A DNA stretch of 64,000 nt from an uncultured Verrucomicrobiae bacterium (GTDB lineage: Bacteria; Verrucomicrobiota; Verrucomicrobiia; Chthoniobacterales; JAFAMB01). Location of the stretch: contig CAWIPH010000002.1 of assembly GCA_963837955.1 (NCBI GenBank), positions 3,392,001-3,456,000 of the forward strand. The letters run 5' to 3'. This document shows positions 27,001 to 33,000 of this stretch, piece after piece. Position 1 is the stretch's first letter; each line of letters begins with the position of its first letter. Position numbers: made by a program.

Positions 27001-30000
27001 CTCTTTGAGCGGCGCTGAAGCACCAAAGGTGTGCATGCCGACAACACGGCCATCTTGACCGACGTAGCGCTCCCACCCCAAAGTGGAAGCTTGCTCGATC
27101 GCGACTCGCGCCTTGACGTTTGGCGGAAACACGCTGTTCCGATACTCCGGCGTCTGGTGTTCGAAGATGTCCCAAGACGGCATCGAAACCACGCGGGCGC
27201 GGATGCCTTCGGCCAACAGCTTCTCATGGGCTTCTACAGCGAGACTGACCTCGCTGCCCGACGCGATAAGAATCACTTCAGGATTTCCGTCTGGGGCATC
27301 AGCAAGTACATAGGCGCCACGCGCGACGCCGGATGCCGGTGCGTATCTGTTCCGATCCAACGTTGGCAAAGGCTGGCGCGACAGTGTCAGGACAGCCGGC
27401 TGGTGGCGTAACTGCATGATGTAGCGGTAAGCCTCAACCACCTCGTTAGCGTCGCCCGGCCGCAGCGTGACCAGTCCGGGGATGGCCCGCAACGAGAGAA
27501 GTTGCTCCACCGGTTGGTGCGTCGGGCCGTCCTCTCCGTCACCCATAGCGTCGTGCGTGAAGACAAACAGGGTCGGCAACTCCATCAAGGCAGATAGTCG
27601 GATGGCAGGTCGCGCGTAATCGCTAAAGATAAAAAATGTCGCACCAAAGGCTCGAATCTTAGACAGAGAAAGCCCGTTCACGGTCGCCGCCATTGCGTGT
27701 TCCCGAATGCCGAAATGCAGATTCTTCCCACCTGGGCTGTCAGCCTGGAAATCTCCCGCACCCTCGTAGGTCAGGGTGGTCTTGTTCGAAGGTCCCAGAT
27801 CCGCGGAGCCCCCGAGTAACCAGGGAATATTCTGCGCGAGTACGTTAAGCACCTTGCCGGAGGCATCTCGCCCCGCTAAGCCCTTCTGGTCGCTTGGAAA
27901 AACGGGTAAATTGCGGTCCCAATCGACGGGGAGCTCCCGTCGCTGCATCAGGTCAATCTCGTTAGCAAGTCCAGGGTGCTTGACTGCGTAGGCGGCGAAG
28001 AGGTCCGTCCATTGATGTCTGGCTTCTGCCCCGCGCACACCCACTCCAGCCGCAAAGTGTTCCCGGACGCCATCGGGGACCAGAAACTTCGCGTCCTCAG
28101 GCCACCCATAGCTGCGTTTACACAGGCGGATTTCTTCGTCGCCGAGTGGCTCCCCATGGGCTGCGGCAGTGTCTTGCTTATGTGGGGAACCGTAGCCGAT
28201 GTGGCTGTCCAGAATGAGGAAGGTGGGACGGCCCTTCGTCTGGCGAAAGACCTGCAGGGCATCCTCGATCCGATCGATGTCGTTAGCGTCGCCGACCCGA
28301 AGAACGTTCCACCCGTAACCCAGGAATCGGGTCGCGATGTCCTCCGTGAAGGCGATTCGCGTATTTCCTTCGATAGTGATGTGGTTGTTGTCGTAGATCC
28401 AGCAGAGGTTATCGAGACCCAGATGGCCGGCCAGTGACGCCGCTTCCGAAGCGATGCCCTCCATCATGCAACCGTCTCCACAAACGGCATAGATATGGTA
28501 GTCGAAAACATCGAAGCCAGGCTGGTTGTAGCGGCTGGCGAGCCACTTCTGGCCGATCGCCATACCTACGCTGGTGGCAACGCCCTGCCCGAGTGGGCCG
28601 CTGGTGGTCTCGACGCCCGACACCCAGTGGTACTCGGGGTGCCCTGGCGCCTTGCTGTCGAGCTGCCGGAAACGGCGTATGTCGTCGAGCGAGACCGAGG
28701 GTTGTCCCAGCCGCTCGTAATCGGCGTTCACCGCTTTGGTCCCGGTTAGGTGTAGCACGGACCAGAGCAGCATCGAAGCGTGACCGTTCGAGAGTACGAA
28801 CCGATCGCGGTTAGGCCAAATCGGGTCCTCCGGGTCGAACCGCATGACGCGATTCCAGATCGTATAGACCAACGGCGCCAGCGCCATCGGCGTGCCGGGA
28901 TGTCCGGACTTGGCCTGTTGCACCGCGTCTATCGAGAGGGTGCGGATTGTGTTAATCGACAATTGATCTAATTCCTGGTTGGTCATGGGATTCATATCCT
29001 GGGCGTTAGCCTATTTTTGCGTTCCAAGCGTCTTATCGAACAGCCAGCTGCCTCGCCGAAGAATCGGCTACATTCGCGAGAACCAGATCTAACAGCGCCA
29101 GGGTGCCAATCAGTTGGCCGCCACTGTTTTCGACGGCGAATTCGCGATCGGCGGTTTGAGCAAAACGGAGCAAGACTTGGTCAACGAGCTCATCCGGTTT
29201 GGTGCCGATAAAAGGTAATATCAACAAATCTTGCACGGCCGATTCCCCGCGAACCTTTCCCTGTTGCAACAGATCAAAGACGAACTCCATGCGTAACCAT
29301 CCTTTGCACTGTTGATCTTGATTCACCACCGGCAGCATCGATGCTGCAGCCTGCTGGAATGTTTTCAGCGCTGACATCACAGAATCAGTCTCGTGAATCA
29401 CGATCGGGTTGGCCCGCATGAAATCCGCGACTCGCTTCTGACGAATTCCTGGAGAGGCTCGATTAACAATGGCCTTGCGTTCATCCAGCGTCAGGTATTG
29501 GACTGAAGTTCGGCGGAAGAGGTAGCCCAGCGTCAGACTATTTTGAGCCAAAGCGTCAAAAGTAGCTTTGTCCAGGGCGAGCAGCGTCGTGGGCTCCAAG
29601 GCCGTCGCGTTAAACTGTCGCCTCAGGTTTTGGAGAAGTTCCCTTTCGCCGAAATGGTGGCCAGGCGTTAGTGCGCGAACCGGCCCGTTCTCGTCGGAGA
29701 GTTCCACCTTTCCTTTTTCGATGATATAGAAAGAGAAAGCTGGATCGCCGATATGAAAGACCGGGTCGCCTTTCTCTAAATGGACGCGGCCGACCACCTC
29801 GGTCATTTTGATATCCAGAAGACTGATGTCCCGAGGGAACAAGAGCTCCAGACTCCACTCCATGAACACTTTCAATTTCCGCTCCAATCCCGGCAGTTTG
29901 GATAGGTATACGGCTCGCCACATCAGCCAACCTAACAACCCAGAGACTTTGAACCCGAAAACCTTGCCTACAGCGTTCAAATGCCCAAGAGAAGCCATTT

Positions 30001-33000
30001 CTCCCAGGGCTTTGAAGCCGAAAGGCTGCAGCGGGCTCTTGCTTCGCAGAGCGACAATGTTCTTCCCCAGGATCGTGCCTTGGCGAATCGCGAATTGCGC
30101 AGTCGCCGGCGAGACACTTCCATCGGTCAGCGGCACCGCAGCGCAATCGCCAGCCGCCCAGAGATTTTGGTGCCCTTTCAATCGCATCGTCGGTTCGGTG
30201 ACCAGTCGCCCTTTGGAGTTGGCTAACTGATATCGATCGATCAATTTTTGGATCACCGGGTGAGTCGCATTCCCGACCGTTGTCACCACCGTGTTGGTTT
30301 CGATCACATCGCCCGTGCTCAGAATAGCTCGCTCGGCGGTGATGGCGTTTACTCGAGTGTCTAGCCGCACCTCAATTCCACGCTTCGCCAGGTGCTCACC
30401 ACAATAACGCCCCAACTCCTCGCCGATTTGCGGCAATAGATAAGGACCGCTGTGAACCAAAACTAAGCGAAAATCTTTGCGGTCGAGTCTCGGATAAAAT
30501 TTGCGTACATCCCGAAGCAGGTCGTAAATCTGGCCGGCGGTCTCCACACCGGAATATCCGCCGCCAACGACAACGAAGGTGAGAAGTTTTTGGCGCAATG
30601 CCTTGGTCCTGGTCACGCTCGCTTCTTCCAACCGTTGGATCACTTCTGCGCGCAGCCGGATAGCGTCCCCGACAGTTTTCATCAGATACCCGTGCTCCGG
30701 CATTCCCGGAACGCGGCTCACGTCCACTACGCTGCCAATGGCAAATACGAGATGTTCAAACTTCAAGGTGGCATCGCGAACAAAGGGCCCCGGAGAAAAG
30801 CGAACGGTCTGAGCATCAAGGTCAACTTCCTCCACGGATCCCATAAAAATGGAGCTGCCTCGGCAGAATTCGCGGAGTGGATTGACGACGTGGAGCGGTG
30901 AAATCGACGACCCACTTACCTCAGCCAACATCGGGTGGAAGAGCATTGCGTTTTGGTCCGCTAAAAGGGCCACGTTTTCAGCGGCATCAGGCAGGCCTGC
31001 GGTCAACGCTCGCGCGCAGTAAGTACCCGCGAATCCCCCGCCCAGGATGACGACTGGAAAAGAATAGGTTTCGGAAGCTAAGGACGAAGGCTGGTTGTCG
31101 GTCATGGTTTTATACTTCTATGAGAGCCACATTTTGCAGGGGCGCAGAGCCGCTCAGCGCGACTGAATTTCAGCGACCAAGAAGGAGGAGATCAAAGCAT
31201 GTGTCTTCCTTTTTGATCTCATTTGAGCTGTGTTGTCGCTGCGCGATCTGCGAGCACCAAAGCTCTTTCCTGATTTACGCGTCCGGCTGGAATTGACGGA
31301 TCGCCTTCCCGGAGGCGGACAAGCATTCCAGCTTTCTCACTCCCAGTGACCAACCAAAGGATGCGTCGAGCGCGATTGAGAATCGGGTATGTCAACGTCA
31401 TCCGGCGCCTCCCTTGATAGATCCCGGTCACGGCAACGTCTGCGTCGCTCACTTGGAGGACGGCGTCGCCGGGCACCAGCGAAGCGGTGTGCCCATCCGG
31501 TCCGAGTCCCAGGTGGATGAGATCGAGCACCGGCGGCGAGCCGGCGATCTTCGCGAGCACCTCAGCATACTGCTTCGCGGCCGCTTCCAGATCGGTCGAT
31601 TCCACTGGCATGGCGTAGACTTGTTCGGGAGGTAACGGCGCATGCTTCAGCAGGCTTTCGCGCAAGTGAGTGAGGTTGCGGTCGGGGTCTCCCGCCGGAG
31701 CCACCCGTTCGTCGACCTGTGCCAAATGCACGCTCTCCCAAGGAACCTGCTCTCCGGCCAGAGCACGGAGCATAATCCAAGGGGTGTGCCCGCCACTGAC
31801 CGCCATGATAAAACGCTCGCGCTCGGCAACTGCTGTTCGCGCCTCTGCGGCGATAATCTTGGCGGCCTCTCGGGCCACCGAATCGGCATCTGCGAATATT
31901 TCAATCTTCATGTAAACGTCTCCAATATCGGGACTACCCTTTCACAATTGGGTTCTGCCAGCCCGCGGGAGGTGAAACTTTGTGATCGACTTCGCTCGGT
32001 CCCCAGCTGTTCGGCTCGTATTCAATAACGGGGGTGCTCGAACTCAGTACCGGATCGACGATTCGCCATGCCTCTTCGACATAGTCCTCTCGGGCAAACA
32101 GGGTCGGGTCCCCCGCCATAGCGTCTCCTAAGACGCGTTCGTAAGCATCCATCTCGTCCGCGCGAGGCTGCCGGCTTATTATCATCTCGACAGACTGGCT
32201 GACTGTATCCTCTCCAGGGGCGATAACGTTCATGCCGAGGGCCAGGGTGACCTCGGGGCTGATCCGAAACCGGAAATAGTTCGGCGTCAGATTGAACTGC
32301 TCAAACATTGTCGGGGGCTGACGGAGCCGAACGACGATTTCTGCGCACGTCACGGGAAGACATTTCCCCGCCCGAATGTAGAAAGGAACGCCTTTCCATC
32401 GCCAGGAATCAATCTCCAGTTGCAGCGCGGCAAAGGTTTCCACCTGAGAGTCTGGCGCGACGCCTTTTTCGTTGCGGTAGCCACGGAACTGCCCGCGAAC
32501 CACGTCCTCGCTTTTCAGGGGCGGAATCGCTTTGAGAACTTTGACCTTTTCATCTCGGATCGACTCGCTGTCGTTTCTAGGAGGAGGCTCCATGGCCAGG
32601 TTGGCTAGAATCTGAAATAGATGATTCTGAATCACGTCGCGGATAGTGCCCGTATCGTCGTAGAAAGCGCCTCGGCCCTGGACCCCGAAGTCTTCGGCCA
32701 TCGTGATCTGCACGCTTTCGACGTAGTTGCGATTCCAAAACGGTTCCAGGAACGCGTTTGCAAAACGGAAGAAAAGCATGTTATGCACCGGCCGTTTCCC
32801 CAGGTAATGGTCGATGCGAAAGATTCTATTCTCGTCGAACGTCCCGAGTAGAATCCGGTTGAGGTGCTGGGCCGAAGCGAGGTCCCGGCCGAAGGGCTTT
32901 TCGATGATAACCCGAGCACCATCGGTGCAGCCCGACTTCGCCAACTGTTCGACGACTAGCCCGAATAAGACGGGCGGTATGGCCAGGTAATGCGCCGGTC

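Follow-up and report, generated by a model that had tools for sequence, protein, structure and literature searches.

NADH dehydrogenases of type II (NDH-2) of known structure (9mqy; Ndi1, 4g6g/4g9k; S. aureus, 5na1; C. thermarum, 4nwz) share two Rossmann folds, the GxGxxG, GxGxxGxE and WxxGD motifs, a quinone-site motif and a C-terminal anchor. Fusions of a cNMP-binding (CNB) fold to a catalytic domain are found in the Pat acetyltransferases (4oll/4onu/4orf) and the EAL enzyme Bd1971 (6hq2), which are regulated by cAMP. Gluconobacter-type clusters of the pentose-phosphate pathway (PPP) contain a transaldolase/phosphoglucose-isomerase (tal-pgi) fusion and a short-type 6-phosphogluconate dehydrogenase (gnd), and in these bacteria an NDH-2 reoxidizes the cofactors of sugar oxidation; this NDH-2 is not known to lie in the PPP cluster or to carry a sensor tail. 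In the NDB1-type external NDH-2 of plant and fungal mitochondria, the oxidation of NADPH and NADH is switched by Ca2+ (PMC4587368), and the sensor is an EF-hand inserted into the FAD domain beside the GD motif, according to a large NDH-2 survey, which excluded sequences with fused domains (PMC5299459). Table 1 of the 2007 census by Kannan et al. lists CNB fusions to pyridine nucleotide-disulphide oxidoreductases and to CBS domains (PMC2246266). The family “Bact_Pyrredox” has tandem CNB domains, and in the family “CBS”, tandem CBS domains come after a CNB domain whose cassette is non-canonical; each is represented by one line of that table, which gives no experiments.

The window analyzed here, a stretch of 64,000 nucleotides, comes from a soil verrucomicrobium (Table 1). 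It contains an ORF that begins with ATG and translates into 690 aa, with the C-terminal CNB and CBS domains and the Pfam spans reported in the preliminary description of this DNA. Whereas canonical NDH-2s end at the anchor, this protein continues for 260 more residues, which hold one CNB fold (not two, as in “Bact_Pyrredox”) and a CBS pair. In contrast to the NDB1 type, it is bacterial, its putative sensor is C-terminal, and Pfam detected no EF-hand in it. Its likeness to Pat and Bd1971 lies in the PDB match of the CNB region, while the catalytic partner differs. The fusion is a real, uncharacterized variant of NDH-2. The idea that a second messenger directly controls an enzyme of respiratory entry had been put forward as new; since the Ca2+-dependent NDB1 enzymes are known (PMC4587368), such control is not new in principle, and the entries of the census narrow the novelty further (PMC2246266).

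Table 1. Features of the fusion gene and its neighbors, in window coordinates.
Feature	Position	Strand	Basis and remarks
MscS-type channel with CNB domain	39508..40995	-	Pfam, cassette read; second CNB protein, at cluster head
Ribose-5-phosphate isomerase B (rpiB)	38480..38932	-	Pfam
tal-pgi fusion	35390..38149	-	Pfam
DUF2090, aldolase-like protein inside operon	34476..35393	-	Pfam, NCBIfam
gnd, short-type	33321..34337	-	Pfam; passes both NADP-named and NAD-named NCBIfam models
Glucose-6-phosphate dehydrogenase (zwf), short 458-aa type, one of three copies in this genome	31934..33310	-	Pfam, NCBIfam
6-Phosphogluconolactonase (pgl)	31219..31911	-	Pfam; 113 bases upstream of fusion
Whole fusion gene (P0001), 690-aa NDH-2 with CNB and CBS pair	29033..31105	-	ORF list, translation, Pfam
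Flavoprotein core, residues 17–343	30077..31057	-	Pfam Pyr_redox_2 (3.8e-40), PDB and family alignments
NDH2_C membrane-anchor domain, residues 368–426	29828..30004	-	Pfam 3.7e-10, 40.3 bits (cut-off 27.7)
cNMP_binding (CNB) fold, residues 441–522	29540..29785	-	Pfam 9.9e-20, 70.8 bits; PDB alignments; own-genome match at same place
CBS1, residues 559–605	29291..29431	-	Pfam 6.8e-08, 33.2 bits (cut-off 24)
Divergent CBS2, about residues 620–680	29066..29248	-	Alignment with relatives having two Pfam CBS stretches
Transketolase (tkt)	26926..28995	-	Pfam; 37 bases downstream of fusion
Sugar-uptake genes downstream of cluster	20968..25425	-	Pfam
LamB porin	23638..25425	-	Pfam
HAD sugar phosphatase-like	22490..23341	-	Pfam
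MFS sugar transporter	20968..22362	-	Pfam

Using motif definitions from the survey (PMC5299459), we located the FAD motif GGGFAG at residues 22–27, the NAD(P)H motif GGGYSGVE at 181–188 (with E188 of GxGxxGxE), WAAGD at 316–320 and the quinone motif AQFAIR at 336–341. The last is the AQxAxR variant, one of three quinone-site motifs and present in 15% of 1762 NDH-2s (PMC5299459). Both GxGxxG motifs, GxGxxGxE, WxxGD and AQxAxR are conserved in the family alignment; among the 120 close clusters, all but one (119) keep AQxAxR. Judged by these motifs, the core is catalytically intact. The best PDB match was the NDH-2 chain 9mqy (2e-44 over residues 6–443), and chains of Ndi1 and of the S. aureus and C. 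thermarum enzymes also matched the core. NDH2_C is the best conserved part of the fusion, with a mean column conservation of 0.92 across the same clusters. Of 8000 proteins scored, we counted 2447 relatives at E ≤ 0.001, rather than the 2943 reported before; the best 120 (70–100% identity, 626–708 aa) did all carry the same five Pfam families under generic names. Both plain NDH-2-like paralogs noted before in the genome itself were found.

Where the second strand of the NAD(P)H fold ends, canonical NDH-2s have an acidic residue and the fusion has H218. In the PDB alignment, H218 stands opposite the Glu in LVEALP, a strand of the Ndi1 chains; we take this Glu for E272, which has been proposed to keep NADPH out (PMC11670749). 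The NDB1 type, to which the fusion may be likened as an NDH-2 that could be under a second messenger, also has an uncharged residue at this position (PMC11670749). His occurs here in 71/80 relatives and in a plain paralog of the same genome, and His or Gln in 77/80, plain NDH-2s among them. Ogataea Ndh2-3 has an uncharged residue at the Glu position, yet it oxidizes NADH exclusively, and the residue is described as no reliable predictor of cofactor specificity (PMC11670749). The NAD(P)H use assumed earlier comes down to this one residue, and because H218 is shared throughout this NDH-2 branch and by the plain paralog, it gives only a hint of NADPH use.

The phosphate-binding cassette of the CNB fold (residues 485 to 502) retains G486 and E487 (118/120 close clusters) and R496 (120/120), followed by Q-F-N instead of the usual S/T/A-A-T/S. 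F498 is present in 115/120 of these clusters, while all aligned PDB cNMP binders have a small residue there. The cassette Arg is absent from 42 of 66 CNB-bearing relatives and replaced by Trp or Tyr in the nearest other clades. Twelve more distant family members carry a fully canonical cassette, so that cNMP binding was probably ancestral in the wider family. In favor of nucleotide signaling, the genome has three class III cyclase-domain matches over the cut-off, instead of the two noted before, and five of its CNB domains have a canonical cassette; the PDB matches of the CNB region to Pat and Bd1971 point the same way. Control by cAMP or cGMP, as proposed before, is weakened by the Q-F-N tail and the Arg-less relatives, and we consider either nucleotide a possible ligand with the balance tilted somewhat against it.

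Adenylate control, the other earlier proposal, is weakened by CBS1. The ribose-phosphate motif, retained by distant relatives in the alignment, is lost from this domain. Scanning the C-terminal 155 aa alone gave a weak second CBS stretch, and the CBS-pair protein MJ1225 (3kh5) matched residues 132–249 of the C-terminal piece (E 0.0014). In the ESM Atlas, the clusters closest to residues 430–690 were enzyme-free, stand-alone CNB and CBS proteins of 270–310 aa (score 0.91, 164–172 shared features), which are leads without alignment.

These observations also bear on the strongest alternative, in which the cassette senses neither cyclic nucleotides nor adenylates, binds another ligand or none, serves mainly dimerization, membrane positioning or protein contacts, and leaves the enzyme constitutive towards cAMP and cGMP. 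The Q-F-N tail, the Arg-less relatives and the motif lost from CBS1 fit this alternative. So does the resemblance of the commonest verrucomicrobial cassettes to the non-canonical consensus given for the census family “CBS” (PMC2246266), and half of the ten CNB domains that the genome encodes are non-canonical. Against it stand the near-invariant G486, E487 and R496, the canonical cassettes of the 12 distant members and the CNB Pfam score of 70.8 bits, as well as the selection on the domain. In comparisons with three unsaturated orthologs (L013, L129 and L137), dN/dS was 0.07–0.12 for the core, 0.15–0.20 for CNB, 0.21–0.23 for CBS1 and 0.14–0.34 for CBS2; every domain of the fusion is under purifying selection (0.07–0.34). 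We regard such a cassette as a serious possibility of roughly one chance in three.

The cluster reads rpiB/tal-pgi/DUF2090/gnd/zwf/pgl/fusion/tkt, with the fusion co-directional between pgl and tkt, and the minus-strand order from gnd to tkt agrees with the preliminary description. No terminator-like site was detected on the minus strand from pgl to the end of tkt. Among 31 metagenome loci at ≥80% identity, and counting those with enough flank, pgl lies directly upstream of the fusion in 21/22 and tkt directly downstream in 15/21, although the contigs are mutually related and these counts overstate independence; the 22nd locus (L144) likewise has zwf and pgl upstream. Two loci (L125 and L129) show the full order from tal-pgi to tkt, and a third at 78% identity (L149) shows it without a DUF2090 match. 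DUF2090 was also present in L133 and in the same-genus genome G035, in which only tal-pgi and DUF2090 lie upstream of the fusion; gnd, zwf, pgl and tkt are missing from the site, and the zwf ortholog is on another contig. At 60–74% identity, pgl was upstream in none of 29 metagenome loci, and trpG was directly upstream in 15/26. In sister genera, hisI-trpE-trpG precedes the fusion (6/6 same-family genome loci). The fusion is a stable member of the PPP operon across one genus-level clade, not family-wide. The earlier count of a CNB domain within two genes of zwf in at least 30 of 794 genomes was not reproduced: we found 2 (G000 and G112) among 201 sampled genomes of the order.

This distribution raises the alternative of a general-purpose regulated NDH-2, which would pass NADH from any source to the quinone pool under control of the sensor cassette and whose PPP position would be the frozen gene order of one clade without specific metabolic coupling. 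The clade-dependent context, the G035 site and the 6/21 close loci without tkt downstream favor it. In a sample of 80 species-representative loci, PPP genes lay within 10 kb of only 2/66 CNB-bearing loci, which is not clearly above chance given three zwf copies per genome. Cytochrome c oxidase genes recur near the fusion in two lineages, in one locus (L103) directly downstream on the same strand. The genome also has other NADPH-balance routes: it encodes PntB, NuoD and, at three loci, PFK, and an NADPH burner is therefore not forced. Against the alternative, the pgl-fusion-tkt order is kept from 94% down to 78% identity, and zwf/gnd clusters stand beside distant fusions. An Acidobacteriota contig (L109) has a tal/gnd/zwf cluster with an unrelated fusion (34% identity) at its head, and on a Vicinamibacterales contig (L097) another lies beside tal-pgi/gnd/zwf. 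When 691 neighbor ORFs, drawn from 79 loci that span 34 lineages, were clustered without bias, zwf (three lineages) and GH63 hydrolases (four) came out among the three most recurrent families and as the most frequent specific neighbors. We consider the general-purpose alternative unlikely, at about one chance in four. A flavoprotein whose electrons go not to quinone but to another acceptor, for example oxygen, a partner of the peroxiredoxin type or some soluble compound, as suggested by a weak resemblance to PDB chains of the FSP1/AIF type and of NADH oxidases and by an AhpC/TSA domain fused in one relative (P0155), is very improbable given that NDH-2 chains are by far the best PDB matches, that the anchor and AQxAxR are so well conserved, and that the sequence lacks a CxxC pair.

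The reading that we prefer, to which we give an even chance as a whole, is that of a sensor-tuned outlet through which the NAD(P)H of the PPP operon enters respiration. The fusion would be a functional NAD(P)H:quinone oxidoreductase of type II at the membrane surface, a respiratory entry without proton pumping. Its fixed place in an accessory, sugar-oxidizing PPP operon of a genus-level clade of Chthoniobacterales-type verrucomicrobia would most likely make it the outlet for NAD(P)H from zwf and gnd. The CNB fold and CBS pair come straight after the anchor domain, whose helices carry the membrane attachment in the solved NDH-2s treated in the survey (PMC5299459). The outlet may be tuned by a small nucleotide ligand that shifts the hinge helix of the CNB fold relative to the anchor helices beside it, and this movement could gate membrane docking or quinone access. 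We infer quinone reduction, the use of NADPH alongside NADH, ligand binding by the cassette and the action of the hinge helix. The gated NAD(P)H oxidoreductase of the PPP proposed earlier is supported in part: the intact core, the sensor domains under selection and the operon hold; control by cAMP, cGMP or adenylates, the cofactor preference and the need for an NADPH sink do not follow. Given its stable membership in the operon, the fusion may plausibly be tied to the reducing power that the PPP supplies, and an operon-bound, sensor-tailed dehydrogenase of this kind points to a regulated way out for that reducing power.

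The fusion gene was confirmed as a real open reading frame of 690 amino acids with an ATG start, and Pfam bore out the four-domain composition that the preliminary description had proposed. The gene neighbours were also as stated there, and the Pfam domains of the surrounding ORFs indicated that the cluster reaches further, from an MscS channel to tkt, with a LamB porin, a HAD phosphatase-like gene and an MFS sugar transporter following after a gap past tkt. The genome holds three zwf copies and two full-length tkt loci, and the window cluster contains one of each. No terminator-like site was found on the minus strand from pgl to the end of tkt, in a scan that, like the promoter scan, ran at the level of shuffled sequence (6 versus 7.5 expected; 23 versus 18.7 expected). 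An Rfam scan of the window yielded two tRNAs as its sole matches and nothing near the operon. A search for RNA sequencing runs that cover positions 26900-34400 found none.

Domains of the fusion protein (residue numbers) and annotated features of the window (nucleotide positions)
Feature	Position	Strand	Evidence or remark
Pyr_redox_2	residues 17-343		Pfam, 3.8e-40
NDH2_C	residues 368-426		Pfam, 40.3 bits (cut-off 27.7)
cNMP_binding (PF00027)	residues 441-522		Pfam, 9.9e-20; 70.8 bits (cut-off 27.5)
CBS (CBS1)	residues 559-605		Pfam, 6.8e-08; 33.2 bits (cut-off 24)
MscS channel with C-terminal CNB domain	39508-40995	-	head of PPP cluster
rpiB	38480-38932	-	
tal-pgi fusion	35390-38149	-	
DUF2090	34476-35393	-	
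gnd	33321-34337	-	
zwf	31934-33310	-	
pgl	31219-31911	-	
NDH-2/CNB/CBS fusion	29033-31105	-	between pgl and tkt
tkt	26926-28995	-	
tRNA	63143-63216	-	Rfam
tRNA	63523-63596	+	Rfam

We assigned the core of the fusion as a predicted type II NAD(P)H:quinone oxidoreductase (NDH-2). Its best PDB matches are NDH-2 chains, led by 9mqy (E = 2e-44, residues 6-443) and followed by Ndi1 and the S. aureus and C. thermarum enzymes. The family motifs were defined according to PMC5299459, and all those listed in the available part of that paper are present. The first GxGxxG dinucleotide-binding motif (GGGFAG, 22-27), the second in its extended GxGxxGxE form (GGGYSGVE, 181-188) and a WAAGD stretch (316-320) precede the quinone-site sequence AQFAIR (336-341). 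The same available text gives AQxAxQ as the quinone-site motif with the variants AQxAxR and APxAxQ, AQxAxR accounting for 15% of 1762 NDH-2s; AQFAIR is of the AQxAxR type, and the six-residue form is kept in 119 of the best 120 relatives (70-100% identity; hereafter close clusters). Residues G22, G24, G181, G183, G186, E188, W316, G319, D320, Q337 and A339 are invariant in an alignment of 53 fusion proteins. The C-terminal membrane-interacting domain (NDH2_C) is present, and the alignment to solved NDH-2 chains ends at residue 427-443. This anchor domain is the best conserved part across the close clusters (0.92 versus 0.87 for the core). A redox-disulfide enzyme was rejected, as the sequence contains no CxxC.

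The preliminary description had the enzyme burning NADPH from the oxidative pentose phosphate (PPP) branch, a claim that is unproven and against which the sequence partly counts. In PDB alignments, H218 occupies the position of the Glu in the LVEALP strand of the Ndi1 chains and of an Asp in 9mqy. The available part of PMC11670749 proposes E272 of Ndi1 as the residue that excludes NADPH, and reports an enzyme that used only NADH even though its residue at the equivalent position is uncharged; an acidic residue there marks NADH-only members, not the NDH-2 family. The fusion has no such acidic residue, and position 218 is H in 103 and Q in 17 of the close clusters, never E or D. H or Q also occupies it in 77 of 80 species-representative relatives that include plain NDH-2s (H 71, Q 6, S 1 and E 2), and the plain NDH-2 paralog of this genome is likewise non-acidic at 218. 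Because H218 is common to the plain paralog and most relatives, it is a trait of this NDH-2 branch and not of the fused enzyme. We therefore rejected H218 as the mark of a specialised NADPH form; it does no more than leave room for NADPH use. The operon gnd passes both the NADP-named and the NAD-named NCBIfam models.

The cyclic-nucleotide-binding (CNB) fold is strongly recognised, and its best PDB matches are PKG and PKA regulatory chains. In ungapped alignments, the G-E and R of the PKG and yeast PKA-R cassettes fall on G486, E487 and R496; G486-E487 is kept in 118 and R496 in all 120 close clusters. After R496, the fusion has Q-F-N where the aligned cNMP-binder chains have S/A/Q, A and T, so that the small-residue form R-[S/T/A]-A-[T/S] is absent; residue 498 is F in 115, L in four and S in one of the close clusters. 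Among the 80 species-representative loci, 66 bear a CNB domain, and their cassettes comprise 12 fully canonical forms, 12 that keep the Arg alone, including the clade of the window, and 42 without it. Most verrucomicrobial relatives carry Trp or Tyr at the Arg position, and these cassettes resemble the non-canonical consensus of the 'CBS' CNB family in the available part of the Kannan et al. 2007 census (PMC2246266). Gating by cAMP or cGMP, as previously claimed, stands without proof, the Q-F-N tail and the 42 of 66 relatives without Arg counting partly against it. The genome does have the means for cNMP signalling: it shows three matches to cyclase domains, and of its ten CNB domains five carry a canonical cassette.

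The MscS channel at the head of the cluster has His at the cassette position held by Arg in cNMP binders. A second MscS-CNB gene comes after a cyclase gene elsewhere in the genome (L113). At L113:45-2220 (plus strand), a dCache-HAMP ORF (45-1679) overlaps a class III cyclase-domain ORF (1501-2220) in a different frame, owing either to a frameshift in a sensor cyclase or to a misassembly. The same genome encodes a second sensor-bearing flavoprotein of 628 amino acids (L122:1858-3744, plus strand; contig C2, about 1678357-1680243). Its CNB domain, which has a non-canonical cassette, is N-terminal (100-185), and Pyr_redox_2 spans residues 303-613.

We read the C-terminal region as a probable CBS pair with a divergent second half, based on a weak second CBS stretch detected when the last 155 residues were scanned alone, the alignment of relatives with two clear CBS matches over residues 620-680, and a match of the CBS-pair structure 3kh5 to the CBS2 region (E = 0.0014). 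The ribose-phosphate motif of CBS domains is G-h-h-[T/S]-x-x-[D/N]. CBS1 of the fusion lacks this motif, Arg and Phe standing in place of the Thr/Ser and Asp retained in distant relatives, and CBS2 retains the Asp with Ala at the Thr/Ser position. The suggested gating by adenylates is likewise unproven, and the two CBS1 replacements weigh partly against it. dN/dS values, computed against three unsaturated orthologs (L013, L129, L137), were 0.07-0.12 for the core, 0.10-0.12 for the anchor domain, 0.15-0.20 for CNB, 0.21-0.23 for CBS1 and 0.14-0.34 for CBS2. Every part of the fusion is under purifying selection, which argues that the sensor cassette does something.

The position of the fusion within the PPP operon is conserved in one clade. 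In a same-genus genome (G035), tal-pgi and DUF2090 lie immediately 5' of the fusion, gnd, zwf, pgl and tkt are absent there, and the zwf ortholog (85% identity) is on another contig. In all six same-family genome loci, hisI-trpE-trpG is upstream of the fusion, with a glycogen debranching enzyme, GH63 or zwf on the other side. PPP genes occur within 10 kb of the fusion in two of the 66 CNB-bearing species-level loci (L097, L109), which is not clearly above chance given the three zwf copies of this genome. The arrangement in G035 suggested a one-off insertion of the fusion into the operon, a reading that we rejected on the evidence of 66 metagenome loci of close relatives, 31 at 80% identity or more and 29 at 60-74%. 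Among the loci at 80% or more, 22 have a flank of 400 bases or longer, and in 21 of these the gene directly upstream, on the same strand, is pgl; the remaining one, L144, likewise carries zwf and pgl upstream. On the other side, tkt directly follows the fusion in 15 of 21 loci, the six exceptions being L137-L140, L148 and L186. The full order tal-pgi/DUF2090/gnd/zwf/pgl/fusion/tkt is found in L125 and L129; L149 (78% identity) shares this order but gave no DUF2090 match. At 60-74%, pgl is never upstream, and trpG is upstream in 15 of 26 loci. The operon order has survived about 20% protein divergence, in counts that are not independent events because the metagenome contigs are related to each other.

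The operon also has an uncharacterised aldolase-like member, DUF2090, with weak resemblance to 5-dehydro-2-deoxyphosphogluconate and tagatose-bisphosphate aldolases; it is kept between tal-pgi and gnd in the window, L125, L129 and L133. In another genome (G120 contig C19, 65147-66507, minus strand), the ortholog of the window-type zwf (78-86% identity) is in three pieces, with a TAA inside one match, and is probably a broken gene.

Both PPP-adjoining loci of the wider sample are from outside the phylum. On the Acidobacteriota contig L109, a 706-amino-acid fusion, 34% identical to that of the window, heads a tal/ROK/gnd/zwf cluster, and on the Vicinamibacterales contig L097 another fusion adjoins tal-pgi/gnd/zwf. 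Between L109:13214-18112 (on a 936-kb contig) and window positions 31934-38149, tal, gnd and zwf are 77%, 82% and 76% identical; this sharing of PPP genes could be due to transfer between phyla.

To describe neighbours without chosen queries, we clustered 691 ORFs within 6 kb of the fusion from 79 loci in 34 lineages (55% identity), leaving out six duplicate loci, 14 loci without CNB and L030, in which no ORF was called. GH63/MGH1-like hydrolases recurred in four lineages (seven loci), NarL-type response regulators, a very common family, in four, zwf in three (four loci), and gnd and cytochrome c oxidase subunits in two each. The resulting theme, carbohydrate mobilisation and respiration, is weak in numbers but consistent. 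In the Opitutaceae loci L040 (7295-12001) and L043, a GH63/MGH1-like hydrolase of about 890 amino acids ends 4 bases 5' of the fusion gene on the same strand, and the same hydrolase family adjoins fusions in Chthoniobacterales, Planctomycetota and Acidobacteriota. In a Blastocatellia locus (L103:1166-7244, plus strand), genes for cytochrome c oxidase subunits II, I and III lie directly 3' of an NDH-2/CNB/CBS fusion on the same strand.

A sequence search of 1.84 billion cluster representatives returned 18,899 matches at E ≤ 0.001, 1,577 of them at ≤ 1e-30. We scanned the domains of 57 of the best 150 matches, picked for length (at least 520 amino acids) and variety; 46 combined NDH-2 with CNB, 20 of these also with CBS. 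NDH-2 cores with a CNB domain amount to thousands of bacterial sequences from many phyla. Named records place fusions in the Chthoniobacterales, Opitutales, Verrucomicrobiales and Akkermansiaceae of Verrucomicrobiota, and also in Planctomycetota, Acidobacteriota, Myxococcota, Chlamydiae, Spirochaetia, Nitrospiraceae and Obscuribacterales; database names of the relatives are generic (NADH dehydrogenase, FAD-dependent oxidoreductase). Further parts on other NDH-2/CNB proteins (P0155, P0168, P0145, P0220, P0256, P0173, P0177 and P0143) include AhpC/TSA, aquaporin, DoxX, ketopantoate-reductase-like (ApbA), HlyD-like, FHA and TPR domains. Among 201 sampled genomes of the order, about 16 encode the fusion at full length and about 13 a version that has CNB but not CBS, in a tally that takes in G158 and G173, both with plain matches alone. 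In a quick tree of 67 cores, plain and CNB-bearing enzymes were interleaved, and its starred branches force at least four changes, and at least six for the CBS-bearing group, suggesting that the domains have been gained or lost repeatedly in the family.

NDH-2 is usually seen as an unregulated, constitutive entry of NADH electrons into the quinone pool. To our knowledge, well-known regulated forms are limited to the Ca2+-dependent NDH-2s found in plant and fungal mitochondria. For one of these, the EF-hand enzyme NDB1, Ca2+-dependent oxidation of NADPH and NADH is established in the available part of PMC4587368. Messenger control of an NDH-2 is therefore not new in principle, contrary to the novelty first claimed for second-messenger control of a respiratory entry enzyme. 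Unlike NDB1, the fusion has no EF-hand detectable by Pfam at E ≤ 0.01 and no insertion after the GD motif; some relatives have an insertion there, of other sequence. It resembles the 'Bact_Pyrredox' CNB family, as described in the available part of the 2007 census (PMC2246266), in its oxidoreductase part and differs in the CNB part, having a single CNB stretch. That part of the census also remarks that NADH production may involve CNB functions. The NDH-2 survey, in the available text of PMC5299459, left out sequences with fused domains. Among open-access papers and preprints, no work on an NDH-2 with a CNB or CBS domain came to light, the 2007 census being the sole related item. The fusion appears to be a new variant of NDH-2 and belongs to a large family.

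The window cluster looks like an accessory sugar-oxidising PPP set, since the genome has two further zwf loci and another full-length tkt locus, and since a porin and a transporter of its own lie nearby. Most simply, the fusion would be an outlet through which the cofactors that zwf and gnd reduce are returned to the quinone pool, and the sensor cassette would set how far this outlet opens. Since the CNB barrel starts about 15 residues past the last anchor helix, a CNB hinge moved by a ligand could affect the anchor helices, by which the enzyme is held at the membrane. The genome also holds PntB, NuoD and three PFK loci, so that an NAD(P)H outlet would be an option for the cell and not a necessity. 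A broader proposal, which we advance tentatively and regard as rather doubtful, is that NDH-2s carrying their own CNB domain make up a large class, spread over several phyla, of respiratory entry enzymes switched directly by a nucleotide messenger. In this verrucomicrobial clade, such an enzyme would be wired into an oxidative PPP operon, with sugar oxidation, NAD(P)H reoxidation and control inherited as one unit, and its non-canonical cassette may respond to a different ligand from cAMP or cGMP, such as a nucleotide related to the pathway.

The host clade belongs to the abundant soil verrucomicrobia, in which the fusion lies inside a complete sugar-oxidising PPP operon. If the cassette gates the enzyme, respiratory electron entry would be linked directly, at the post-translational level, to nucleotide signalling or energy charge, and the question of how these bacteria get rid of the reducing power from the PPP would have a simple answer. 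The fusion would then also offer a compact, testable model, in one polypeptide, for the allosteric control of a monotopic membrane enzyme.
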